Assembly (NCBI GenBank): GCA_011052215.1
Contig: DRJK01000127.1
Span: 652 to 64,651 of the forward strand
Source of the DNA: Gammaproteobacteria bacterium
GTDB lineage: Bacteria > Pseudomonadota > Gammaproteobacteria > JAADHQ01
Length of the DNA stretch: 64,000 nt
Direction: 5' to 3'
The notes beneath the pieces were generated by a model. The model saw nothing but the letters and a program-made list of their open reading frames with translations, had not been told where the DNA came from and did not search any database. The position numbers and the translations under genes were made by a program. This document shows, piece after piece, positions 5,220 through 59,260 of the stretch. Each line of letters opens with the position of its first letter. Positions within the stretch are counted from its first letter, which is position 1.

Positions 5220-7718
5220 TTACAGTTCACGCTTGACCTGTACCCGTTCAAAGACCTCGATCTGGTCTCCTGATTTGATGTCATTGTAATTCTTGACACC
5301 AATACCACATTCGACACCTGATTTAACTTCATTGGCCTCATCCTTGAATCGTCTGAGTGATTCCAGCTCGCCTTCATAAATTACAATGTCATCACGTAAT
5401 ACGCGTATCGGGCTATTACGCTTCACCACACCATCGATGACCAGACAGCCGGCTATTGCACCCAATGAAGATGAACTGAACACGTCACGAACTTCTGCAA
5501 GACCAATGATGTCTTCCTTGAATTCCGGTGCCAGCATTCCTGTCAGGGCTGCCTTGACCTCATCAATCAGATCATAAATAACGCTAAAGTAATGAAGGTC
5601 GATCCCCTCTTCCTCTATCATTCGTTTGGATGAAACATCTGCACGTACATTGAAACCGAAGACAACAGCACCCGATGCCATTGCAAGGTTGATATCCGAC
5701 TCATTGATACCACCCACTCCGGTGGCAACAATGTTGACTTTAACTTCATCAGTAGAAAGTTTTAATAATGAACCCGTAATTGCCTCAACCGAGCCTTGAA
5801 CATCTGCCTTGATCAGAACATTGAGCGTGCTGACTTTTCCGCTCTCCATGTTTGTAAACATGTTTTCCAGCTTGGCCTTTTGCTGATTAGCCAGCTTGGT
5901 TTCACGTGTTCTGATTTGCCTGAGGCTGGCAACCTCACGCGCCTTACGCTCATCCTTGATGGCAACGGCCTCGTCACCTGCATTGGGGGGGCCCGAAAGG
6001 CCGAGTACCTCAACTGGTATGGAAGGACCTGCCGAGTCTACCGGTTTCCCGTCTTCATTCAGTATTGCCCGAATTCGCCCATACTCATTACCTGCAACCA
6101 GTACATCGCCTTTACGCAAGGTTCCTTGCTGCACCAGGACTGTTGCAACCGGGCCGCGACCCTTGTCGAGTCTGGACTCAATAACAACGCCCTTTGCGCC
6201 GGCATCGACAGGGGCCTTCAGTTCCAGAACCTCTGACTGCAATAATATGGCTTCAAGCAAACTGTCAACACCTTCACCGGTATGCGCTGAAACATTAATA
6301 AACATGACGTCGCCACCCCAGTCTTCCGGCATCACATCTTCCTGTGATAACTCCTGTTTTACTCTATCAGGTTGTGCCTCTTCCTTGTCAATCTTGTTTA
6401 TGGCAATAATAATAGGGACACCACCTGCACGGGCATGCTGGATGGCTTCTTTTGTCTGTGGCATAACGCCGTCATCGGCCGCAACTACAATGATAACAAT
6501 GTCGGTTGATTTGGCGCCGCGTGCACGCATTGCCGTAAATGCGGCATGACCCGGCGTGTCCAGAAAAGTGATCATGCCTTTATCTGTATCAACGTGGTAA
6601 GCACCGATGTGTTGTGTTATTCCGCCTGCCTCACCAGAGGCAACACGGCTATTTCTGATATAATCCAGCAAGGATGTCTTGCCGTGGTCCACATGGCCCA
6701 TAATCGTCACAACGGGTGCACGCGGCTCAAGCGGGGCATCGGATTCTTCAACTGTTATAAGTTGTTCTTCAATGGCATCATCACTGATCAGCTTGACTGT
6801 ATGGCCCATTTCCTCAACGACTACGGTGGCTGTCTCCTGGTCCAGAACCTGATTTATCGTAACCATACTACCCAGATTCATCATGACCTTGATCACTTCT
6901 GCCGCCTTGACCGTCATTTTTTGTGCAAGCTCGGCAACTGTAATCGATTCGGGAATATTAACTTCATGAACAATGGGCGCCACCGGCCTTTCAAAACCAT
7001 GCTCCTGACTTGATGAGACCGTTACATTCCTGTTCTTGGGTTTTTTCTTGCGCCGACCACTTTTATTAAGCGACACATGTAATTCCTGGCGGCCGTAACG
7101 TGTCGACTTGTCATCCTTGCGCTTACCTTTTTTCTCAGGCTTTTTGTCACCCTTGCCACCCGCTTCTTCGGCTTTCATGGCGTTTTCCCTGGCCTTTTCC
7201 ATCTCCTGACGCAGCAATGCCTCTTCTTCTGCTTTTTTGCGTACCTCTTCTTCTTTGGCCTTGAGTTTCGCCTGCGCTTCTTCCTGTTGCCTGAACTCTT
7301 CCTTCTCTTTTTCTTTGGCTTCTTCTTCTGCCTTTAACCTGGCCTCTTCCTGCGCTTTAAGTTCGGCTTCTTCCTTTTTCTTGCGCTCTTCCTCCTCGAG
7401 GATATCCGAACGTTTGACGTATGTGCGCTTCTTGCGTACTTCTACATTAACTGTCTTGCTCTTGCCATGCGTACCTGTTACACGCAATTCACTTTGAGTC
7501 TTTCTTCGTAATGTAATCTTGCGCGGTCCTTCCCCGTCAGCACCCATATTTTTCCCATGACTGAGACGCAGATGATCCAGCAATTGCATCTTCTGCCGAT
7601 CTGTTATCAAGTCAGTATCATTGGAGAAATTCAATCCTGCTTCACCCAGTTGGGCCAGCATTTTTTCTGCTGGTACTCCAACGACTTCAGCAAACTGCTT
7701 GACTGTTACATCTGACAT
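5220..7718 (-). CDS. infB: Translation initiation factor IF-2
   Basis: 832 aa. It has a charged E/K/A-rich N-terminal repeat region, a GTPase G-domain ([21 protein letters not shown]) and C-terminal beta-barrel domains. Confidence 0.97.
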
Positions 7719-44845: not shown

Positions 44846-44858
44846 TTAAATAATTATA

Positions 44859-45089
44859 CTGCTGTCACGTTAACCTGTAACAAGTATAGTTGAAACGTAA
44901 ACGGCAAGTCGGTTTTGAGCTAAACAGGGCATTGCGGACATGAAACCGGCATAGCCAGATCAAGACACGCAAAAGATGCCATCCCTGGCCGCTCGGCCGC
45001 CGCATCCCTGCGGCAGACGGTCTTTATCTGGCTATGCCGGTTTCATGTCCTCACATTGATGCTCGCTGCAAAAGTTAACGGGACAGCAG
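44859..45089. repeat. Intergenic repeat element copy A (full length, MITE-like, with 16-bp terminal inverted repeats and a perfect 25-bp internal stem)
   Basis: Termini CTGCTGTCACGTTAAC / GTTAACGGGACAGCAG. The internal arms 44936-44960 and 45006-45030 are perfect reverse complements. Its reverse complement aligns along most of its length with the copies at 53007-53115 and 59047-59243. Confidence 0.6.
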
Positions 45090-45193
45090 TGAAATAATTA
45101 CTGGAAGCCGGCCAGACTCCTGATACTACAATACAGCAATGTATGATGATAATAAATGGAGTGGGTCGATTTGAGCCAGACCTGCGTCCAGAA

Positions 45194-52975: not shown

Positions 52976-53006
52976 AAATCACTAAAAAATATCATGCCCG
53001 GGATCA

Positions 53007-53115
53007 TTGCTGTCCCGTTAACTTTATGAAGCACATAACAATGTGAGGACATGGAATCGGTAAGACTGATCAAGACCGTCTGCCGCACGGACGCGGCAGC
53101 CGAGCCGCAACGGAT
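53007..53115. repeat. Intergenic repeat element copy B (truncated half-copy with one terminal repeat)
   Basis: TTGCTGTCCCGTTAAC terminus followed by the shared core GTGAGGACATGGAATCGGTAAGACTGATCAAGACCGTCTGCCGCACGGACGCGGCAGCCGAGCCGC. It ends mid-element. Confidence 0.5.
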
Positions 53116-53269
53116 GCGAAGAAAAATATTATTGTGTTTAGAAAGTTTTGCGTTCTTTATCTGCCATGAAATTTCATTTCATGGCCAACATACTGAAACC
53201 CTGCGTCTTCTGTACCAGATCTGATTAATTAACCATGACGATCACACATGATACATCCACCCAATCATT

Positions 53270-59046: not shown

Positions 59047-59243
59047 ATCAAGGTGAGGACATGGAATCGGTAAGCCTGATCACGACCGTCTGCCGCACGG
59101 ACGCGGCAGCCGAGCCGCCATGGATGGCATGCTTTGCGTGTCTTGATCCGGCCTGCCGGTTTCATGTCCGGATTGCGGGTTAGCCCAAACGCACTTGCCG
59201 CTTACATTTCAGCTACATTCGTCATGGGTTAACGGGACGGCAG
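59047..59243. repeat. Intergenic repeat element copy C (lacks left terminal repeat; internal stem degenerate)
   Basis: It aligns along most of its length with the reverse complement of copy A (GTGAGGACATGG...GCGGCAGCCGAGCCGCCATGGATGGCATGCTTTGCGTGTCTTGATC...GCCGGTTTCATGTCC...GTTAACGGGACGGCAG). Confidence 0.6.
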
Positions 59244-59260
59244 TGAATTTGTGTATTGAA

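Follow-up and report, generated by a model that had tools for sequence, protein, structure and literature searches.

Three intergenic spacers of a 64,000-nucleotide stretch from a Gammaproteobacteria bacterium (NCBI GenBank assembly GCA_011052215.1, contig DRJK01000127.1, positions 652 to 64,651 of the forward strand; hereafter the window) contain copies of one repeat, which we describe here as a miniature inverted-repeat transposable element (MITE) that carries a conserved hairpin structure. Copy A is located between dnaJ and dapB, 101 nt 3' of the former and 23 nt upstream of the start codon of the latter (44833), copy B between recN and a DUF4340 gene, 30 nt after the recN stop codon, and copy C between bamE and ratB, 7 nt after the bamE stop codon. 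These neighbours, which had been named in an earlier note made from the sequence alone, were all recovered with Pfam (DnaJ, DapB, RecN, DUF4340, BamE and RnfH/RatB).

Three copies of a repeat in the window

All three copies are real, and the limits given for them in the earlier note, which already described both orientations and the truncation of copies B and C, were off by at most 2 bp. A repeat search of the window returned copies B and C with 93% identity over 81 nt and copies A and C, in inverted orientation, with 86% identity over 80 nt, and in a three-way alignment copy A runs opposite to the other two. Moreover, a 24-nt core, GACCGTCTGCCGCASGGAYGCGGC, occurs three times in the window, and an 18-nt terminus, CACTGCTGTCCCGTTAAC, is found four times when up to two mismatches are allowed, with an expectation from shuffled sequence of 0.00 for both (100 shuffles in the case of the core).

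The ends of the element are 18-bp inverted repeats, CACTGCTGTCCCGTTAAC and GTTAACGGGACAGCAGTG, which are perfect in many copies; the repeats reported previously for copy A are present, and their length becomes 18 bp rather than 16 bp when the outer CA is included. On either side of copy A stands the same 9-mer, AAATAATTA, as a direct repeat without mismatches, and the copy can be aligned over its full length with 15 copies from other genomes. Copy B retains the 5' terminus, the 5' arm of the stem and the first hairpin, and ends within the second small hairpin, and in copy C the 5' terminus is missing together with the rest of the first ~28 nt. The insertion between dnaJ and dapB (copy A) is recent and intact, and those that follow recN and bamE (copies B and C) have decayed. 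We consider it very probable that these repeats are copies of a non-coding MITE of ~235 bp, with 18-bp inverted repeats, which is mobilised in trans by an IS4-family transposase and produces a target-site duplication (TSD) of 9 bp. The features are collected in Table 1.

Table 1. Features of the repeat copies, with positions in the window unless another locus is named
Feature	Position	Strand	Basis or remark
Copy A, complete 235-bp MITE	44857..45091	- (GGA-loop side, 5' arm as aligned to B/C)	alignment with B/C, termini
TSD left of copy A, AAATAATTA	44848..44856		identical 9-mer at 45092-45100
TSD right of copy A, AAATAATTA	45092..45100		
Copy A inverted repeat, dapB side, TACTGCTGTCACGTTAAC	44857..44874	+	2 mismatches to consensus
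Copy A inverted repeat, dnaJ side, CACTGCTGTCCCGTTAAC	45074..45091	-	perfect
Long hairpin of copy A, ~27-bp stem bearing the three-way junction	44935..45048	-	covariance model R1, 110.5 bits, E 6e-24
Conserved 59-nt core of copy A, two C-A-N-GGA-N-G hairpin loops	44964..45022	-	
Candidate outward promoter GTTACA-17-TATAAT, MITE/target junction	44853..44881	-	consensus scan, 10/12 matches; faces dapB
Copy B, 3'-truncated MITE	53005..53116	+	alignment; covariance model, 35 bits; core and terminus matches
5' terminus of copy B	53005-53022		
Copy C, 5'-truncated MITE	59047..59245	+	alignment; covariance model, 89.3 bits; core and terminus matches
Hairpin of copy C	59058-59171		
Core of copy C	59084-59142		
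3' terminus of copy C	59228-59245		
24-nt core GACCGTCTGCCGCASGGAYGCGGC, sites	44999-45022 (-), 53074-53097 (+), 59084-59107 (+)		
18-nt terminus CACTGCTGTCCCGTTAAC, sites	44857-44874 (+), 45074-45091 (-), 53005-53022 (+), 59228-59245 (-)		at most 2 mismatches
pepP-ubiH spacers, other genomes	L026:3375-3541, L189:2815-2979 (= L035), L033, L186:2815-2887, L187, L188		

Dispersal and insertion polymorphism

The view of these repeats as a dispersed, non-autonomous family with terminal inverted repeats, put forward in the earlier note, is borne out well beyond the window. A scan of genomes (one per species) with the exact core pattern retrieved at least 57 stretches, which belong to Thiohalobacter, two hydrothermal-vent metagenome-assembled genomes (MAGs), Thioalkalispiraceae, Thiohalomonadales and others, and a metagenome scan with the exact 18-nt terminus retrieved at least 120 stretches. 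Viral contigs contained no copy of the core, of the terminus or of a 42-nt insert that is discussed below. In the genome loci of the core scan, paired termini are always 223–236 bp apart. Among 20 full copies from genomes other than that of the window, at least 12 are bounded by clean 9-bp TSDs, with a different 9-mer each time; copies of 234 bp with clean 9-bp TSDs are present in other genomes, and TSDs of the same length are also found around many further metagenome copies.

The comparison with related genomes that had been recommended for insertion polymorphism and TSDs was likewise informative. In one of the retrieved loci, L062 (loci are numbered with the prefix L), DapB is 99% identical to that of the window, yet the dnaJ–dapB spacer is devoid of the element, which reveals an insertion polymorphism. 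The same spacer presents a second polymorphism, an insertion of ~85 nt right after the dnaJ stop codon (L062:1968-2055) that is absent from the window. Furthermore, three independent short-read assemblies of the same organism (Logan contigs L002-L004, position 1) end within the MITE, 82 bp upstream of dapB. Such contigs ending at a repeat indicate that the MITE breaks short-read assemblies at these loci, where it also marks polymorphism at the strain level. With regard to the features by which MITEs are recognised, inverted repeats, a fixed 9-bp TSD, a size of 223–236 bp, a matching autonomous element and polymorphism between close relatives were all found, and we infer that transposition is still going on in this genome.

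An IS4-family partner with the same ends

In several metagenome stretches the termini are ~1.2–1.27 kb apart, and the elements of 1.18–1.27 kb in L102, L111, L083, L098, L097 and L116 have identical 18-bp ends. The element in L102 (874-2147) measures 1274 bp and contains an intact open reading frame (ORF) of 383 aa, and the element in L111 (2669-3939), with these ends as well, is bounded by a 9-bp TSD, AAACAAACT. The partner ORF matches the Pfam families DUF4372 (94.9 bits) and DDE_Tnp_1 (106.4 bits), as well as the NCBIfam model NF033592 of the IS4 family (264.8 bits, cutoff 115). The nearest named relatives of the transposase are ISAbe18-like, with ~51% identity, and homologues with 64–78% identity were detected by tblastn in at least 15 further metagenome loci and in none of the genome loci. 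An insertion sequence with these ends was absent from the at least 57 genome loci, with five mismatches tolerated, and came to light in the metagenome scan alone. The search for a cognate transposase suggested in the earlier note has therefore yielded an IS4-family element with identical ends; the other candidate named there, a transposase associated with repetitive extragenic palindromic (REP) sequences, the REP-associated tyrosine transposase (RAYT), did not emerge, and an approximate query found no Y1 gene in the fetched loci. In the proposed mechanism, the DDE transposase of the 1.27-kb insertion sequence would cut and paste the MITE in trans by way of the matching ends, and 9 bp of the target would be duplicated in each event. 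The conserved 59-nt module at the centre of the MITE is older and more widespread than the MITE itself, which most probably either captured the module or received it by insertion.

Several observations weigh against this account. The empty site of L062 is diverged at the insertion point, and the unchanged 9-mer that preceded the insertion was not seen. No homologue of the partner transposase was detected in the window by tblastn, in line with the previous statement that no transposase is encoded there. Sequence is shared between the MITE and its autonomous partner only at the 18-bp ends and over ~10 nt at one end, which indicates that the MITE is not a simple internal deletion of the insertion sequence. 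Additionally, when full-length copies are aligned, conservation is highest in the core and lower in the arms, a pattern that pure selfish drift does not predict and that hints at a function.

The inverted-repeat ends are generic; the same repeats would mobilise MITEs of quite different interior. Metagenome loci contain other MITEs of 129–282 bp with the same ends, clean 9-bp TSDs and unrelated interiors, and the hairpin model found only 11 matches across the 80 loci searched, which makes the element of the window a single cargo variant within a larger superfamily of IS4-type MITEs. Other palindromic cargo between the same ends and 9-bp TSDs was observed in L066, L071, L072, L076, L080, L082, L103, L110, L138, L140, L142 and L145, with examples such as GTCATTCCGGA...TCCGGAATGAC and CCCTCTCCCT.AGGGAGAGGG, and the motif GAGACATGA is recurrent at the junction between arm and hairpin in same-ended MITEs with other cargo.

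Several bacterial MITEs derive from DDE elements, for example Correia/NEMIS, RUP with IS630-Spn1, Nezha and ERIC/YPAL (PMC2229807). The element described here resembles the known bacterial MITEs in being small, non-coding and intergenic, often just 3' of genes, in its inverted-repeat ends and TSD of fixed length, in forming a long hairpin on transcription and in its proposed mobilisation in trans via shared ends. However, its partner belongs to the IS4 family and its TSD is 9 bp long, whereas many bacterial MITEs have a TA duplication. It also differs in that only the 18-bp ends are held in common with the partner, that the same ends enclose several unrelated interiors, and that its own interior is a conserved, invertible three-way junction which is also found outside the MITE. 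With regard to the IS4 family, the partner has a catalytic DDE_Tnp_1 domain, an N-terminal DUF4372 domain, inverted repeats and a 9-bp TSD, but it is ~51% identical to the nearest named element, and the window holds nothing but a non-autonomous derivative.

A conserved three-way junction at the centre of the element

The centre of the MITE is a stem of about 25–35 bp, ~27 bp in copy A and reaching 36 bp in other copies, which is tipped by a three-way junction of 59 nt. This module, a separately conserved structure that occurs well outside the MITE family, was overlooked in the earlier note. The core consensus is GACCG-U-[CUGCCGC AGGGAU GCGGCAG]-U-CGAGC-N-[NNC ANGGAN GNN]-UUCAC-N-GC-GU-GUC, and the core of copy A reads GACCG-U-CUGCCGC[AGGGAU]GCGGCGG-C-CGAGC-GGCC[AGGGAU]GGC...GCGUGUC. 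Copy A as a whole folds with -114.8 kcal/mol (z -9.3).

From 46 copies, RNAalifold predicted 43 pairs, and compensated changes occur at 29 of these. When the copies were used to build a covariance model, it retrieved ~25 more that do not have the exact search pattern, and in these the stem of the first hairpin covaries and the loops are unchanged. Pairing was also evaluated in 38 diverse cores, which include copies retrieved via the terminus and so avoid the ascertainment bias of the core-pattern scan. The paired fraction of cells in these cores is 92.3%, compared with 70% in shuffles and 31–56% with slid partners, and changes on both sides were found at 23 of 26 pairs. The first hairpin is 98% paired, with compensation at 8 of its 9 pairs. 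Both loops read C-A-N-G-G-A-N-G in every one of the 38 copies, with variation at the N positions only, and the distance from loop to loop is 23 nt in 36 of them. On the GGA strand, G-U pairs outnumber A-C mismatches by 27 to 9.

Template switching at quasi-palindromes, or their correction, can give rise to perfect long stems and to compensated changes. As evidence of selection on an RNA, compensation in the long stem is ambiguous; it may come from quasi-palindrome correction, and the argument for constraint is therefore built on the two small hairpins, with loops that are invariant. The cargo is a conserved, invertible twin-GGA hairpin, and it constitutes the less ordinary part of an otherwise ordinary MITE.

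The module outside the MITE and its orientation

Copies of the module without MITE ends are present in several gammaproteobacterial groups, including Bacterioplanoides, Exilibacterium, Halieaceae, Oleiphilaceae, Pseudomonadales MAGs and others. The inner stem of these copies is specific to the lineage, their outer stem is unique and as a rule perfect, and the copies are frequently arranged in inverted pairs or tandem arrays. On a Halieaceae chromosome, two adjacent inverted copies (L051:5035-5147 and 5265-5377) have wholly different stems, beyond which the sequence CTGAAGCGAAGC ... GCGCAA is conserved. In the Pseudomonadales MAG 6NakV-03 (L025:89-674 and L029:971-1556) and in L030 (4666-5335), three diverged hairpin units form tandem arrays together with one inverted unit. 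The periods of these arrays are ~154 and ~200 nt, so that 6–8 GGA loops follow one another in a row, and they adjoin a phosphopantetheinyl-transferase-like gene; neither a GacA box nor a terminator was seen in these arrays.

Rfam gave no match at the window repeats at gathering thresholds, and against copy A it returned only noise, with no match to Ysr224 (RF02770) even at E values up to 10. The module nevertheless bears a weak resemblance to Ysr224, the only one to an Rfam family. A copy without MITE ends, in L033, scored 20.3 bits against RF02770, on the opposite strand and below the gathering score of 70. Ysr224 is a small RNA (sRNA) candidate of Yersinia pseudotuberculosis, a 53-nt RNA-seq feature between secA and mutT that is multi-copy in Yersinia, as the present element is in its own hosts. 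The opposite strand of its consensus holds the twin-hairpin core, hairpin[AGGGAU]-CUCGAGC-CUACAUGGAUGUA, whereas the outer stem and an extra segment differ from the module and Rfam models the other strand. The Ysr224 consensus had no match in 5,426 E. coli genomes. The relationship gives this uncharacterised multi-copy ‘sRNA’ a concrete identity, and the sequence and structure of the cargo are conserved from the uncultured MAG of the window, whose accession series points to a probable hydrothermal-vent origin, to Bacterioplanoides, Exilibacterium and Halieaceae and, more distantly, to Yersinia.

The orientation of the module is not fixed. Among 16 full MITE copies, two (L031 and L043) have a core that is turned round with respect to the arms, and in the orthologous pepP–ubiH spacer one Bacterioplanoides genome has the GGA strand in antisense, as opposed to the sense direction of two others. 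In co-directional spacers, sense and antisense copies are balanced (14 each), a count based on crude ORF calls, which are not reliable where loci are GC-rich. This mixed orientation weakens any model that requires the GGA strand in an mRNA, and it agrees with an inversion of the core in which the arms of the stem recombine or allow template switching.

A possible CsrA/RsmA-binding role

The consensus selected in vitro (SELEX) for CsrA is RUACARGGAUGU, with GGA presented in a hairpin loop (PMC4347634), and both loops of the module agree exactly with the recognition consensus. This leads to a possible but doubtful reading in which the module is a functional RNA, whose GGA strand, when transcribed, would present two optimal hairpins that might clamp one CsrA/RsmA dimer; the copies would then act as dispersed decoys or place the upstream mRNA under Csr control, with the MITE as a mere vehicle. 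The invariant loops on covarying stems, the 23-nt spacing, the prevalence of G-U pairs over A-C mismatches on the GGA strand and the position of the core as the best conserved part of the MITE all favour such a role, as do the tandem arrays of 3–4 units in L025, L029 and L030. Furthermore, many second hairpins read UACAGGGAUGU, an exact match to the selected consensus (PMC4347634). The module also resembles the Csr/Rsm decoys CsrB/C and RsmX/Y/Z in presenting GGA in the loops of short hairpins, with the flanking CA...G conserved, and in having two sites spaced for one dimer.

However, the balance of sense and antisense copies, the flipped core within some MITEs and the reversal seen among Bacterioplanoides genomes all speak against it. 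RNA-seq support exists for a single homologue, Ysr224, whose Rfam model describes the opposite strand, a GacA/UvrY box (TGTAAG-N6-CTTACA) was not found near any copy, and no Rfam CsrB or Rsm family was matched. Compared with the known decoys, each unit has only two sites and lacks the GacA/UvrY box, a terminator and an Rfam match, and no dedicated sRNA gene encodes the units, which are scattered in either orientation as mobile DNA. A weak CsrA homologue was detected on one Thiohalobacter contig, where it is not adjacent to a copy. In a literature search for CsrA with MITEs or repetitive elements, no prior description was found. Should CsrA bind, a GGA-oriented hairpin in a read-through transcript could engage one CsrA/RsmA dimer, and mobile elements would constitute a route for spreading or titrating global post-transcriptional control. 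In the opposite case, the invariant loops, into which other mini-modules are inserted as well, would point to a protein or a transposition mechanism that reads hairpin loops.

Possible insertion into hairpin loops and comparison with REP elements

The core could also be a mobile element in its own right, a proposal that we consider possible but doubtful. A unit of ~90 nt would enter single-stranded apical hairpin loops, for instance by means of a HUH/Y1 transposase of the REP/RAYT type, and the IS4-type MITE would be one of its hosts. The occurrence of copies without MITE ends in several gammaproteobacterial groups, with a family-specific inner stem and a unique outer stem, is consistent with this proposal, and so is the series of pepP–ubiH spacers. 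These measure 7–9 nt in Thalassolituus marinus and Venatoribacter and 73 nt in ‘Thalassolituus’ sp. HI0120, where only an 11-bp hairpin resembling the outer stem is present, and in Bacterioplanoides they hold the equivalent of this hairpin plus ~92 nt more. Yet the 73-nt spacer can be explained equally well by deletion of the centre of a palindrome, and perfect long stems can result from quasi-palindrome template switching.

Nested insertions offer a further argument. A near-identical 42-nt insert is found directly after GGGA in a GGA loop of two unrelated genomes, in the second loop of L016 (634-789, + strand) and in the first loop of L012 (540-694, - strand). It reads (C/G)AAGGUGAGACCG-N5-CGGUCGAGA.G.UG.CCUGGG.CA, and it looks like a tiny element that targets GGA loops. 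A second recurrent module, of ~50 nt, is located in or beside GGA loops in L144 (10830-10990), L077 (2607-2871) and L115 (2832-3090); it reads GACCGCC-A.GGA.-GGUGGAA.UGCA followed by a hairpin and UGCC, and has a C-A-N-GGA-N-G hairpin of its own. Its presence as an insert in L144 and L077 supports insertion into loops, although such nested examples are few. Moreover, no Y1/IS200-like gene was found in any fetched locus, which is a weak negative given the approximate query.

With regard to REP sequences, CGTC precedes the first hairpin of the module, as it does in CGTC-tagged REPs for which no transposase is known (PMC3733652). The published CGTC REPs, however, have stems of 8–9 bp that start with A-T pairs and loops of 4–5 nt, unlike the module. 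The likeness to REPs, to bacterial interspersed mosaic elements (BIMEs) and to CGTC repeats consists of a short GC-rich hairpin after CGTC, an intergenic location, a frequent arrangement in inverted pairs and the absence of a known dedicated transposase (PMC3733652). The differences are that the element of the window has inverted-repeat ends and TSDs, that the hairpin dimensions and conserved loops of the module fall outside the four described CGTC families, and that in the window element the asymmetric centre is conserved rather than the arms. Assignment to the CGTC-tagged families was set aside for the mismatch in stem and loop dimensions (PMC3733652). REP/RAYT elements (REPINs) are palindromes of 20–40 bp with a GTAG or CGTC tag, an associated Y1 (RAYT) transposase and no TSD. 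An identity with them was rejected in view of the 9-bp TSDs, the dimensions and the lack of a Y1 transposase in the fetched loci (approximate query), and the REP/ERIC-like or RAYT-dependent alternative raised in the earlier note is not supported, given the TSDs and the same Y1 result.

CsrA binding and insertion into loops are compatible with each other and with the MITE assignment. In a combined reading, which we regard as rather improbable, the twin-GGA junction may be a small genetic module of a kind not recognised before, which spreads through Gammaproteobacteria in two ways, as cargo of IS4-type MITEs and by its own insertion into hairpin loops, and which flips when the long arms of its stem recombine, so that genes are wired into the Csr/Rsm network, or the network is titrated, in a dispersed, heritable and reversible manner. 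The host transcript would acquire a dual CsrA/RsmA site of high affinity in one orientation and none in the other.

Possible effects on flanking genes

It seems unlikely that the copies serve the host as intrinsic terminators or as stabilisers of mRNA 3' ends, a role that had been considered for them previously. The location of all three window copies just 3' of a gene, the very stable hairpins, as exemplified by copy A, and the excess of convergent over divergent spacers across loci (18 vs 10) would be in agreement with this role, and in copy B a small hairpin is followed by a T-rich tail. However, copies A and C have no U-tract after the large hairpin, and the candidate in copy B is weak and half composed of flanking sequence. 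Purifying selection against insertions into promoters would lead to 3'-end siting for any MITE, and at 23 nt from the dapB start a strong terminator in copy A would be harmful. Finally, local segmental duplication, the alternative raised in the earlier note, or chance as the origin of the three similarities has next to no probability: the window on its own shows just three copies, two of them truncated, but the shuffle expectation is 0.00 for core and terminus, and the stretches retrieved from genomes and metagenomes show, on contigs and in genomes that are unrelated, dozens of copies with individual 9-bp TSDs.

Under the MITE assignment, a hairpin that is transcribed through could affect the flanking mRNA via RNase III or exonucleases. 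From the letters of the junction, copy A would more plausibly supply a promoter facing dapB than a terminator. The -10 box of this candidate promoter, which spans the junction between MITE and target (Table 1), owes its full match to a G-to-A substitution at the terminal base of the inverted repeat, and the insertion of copy A may in this manner have rewired the transcription of dapB.

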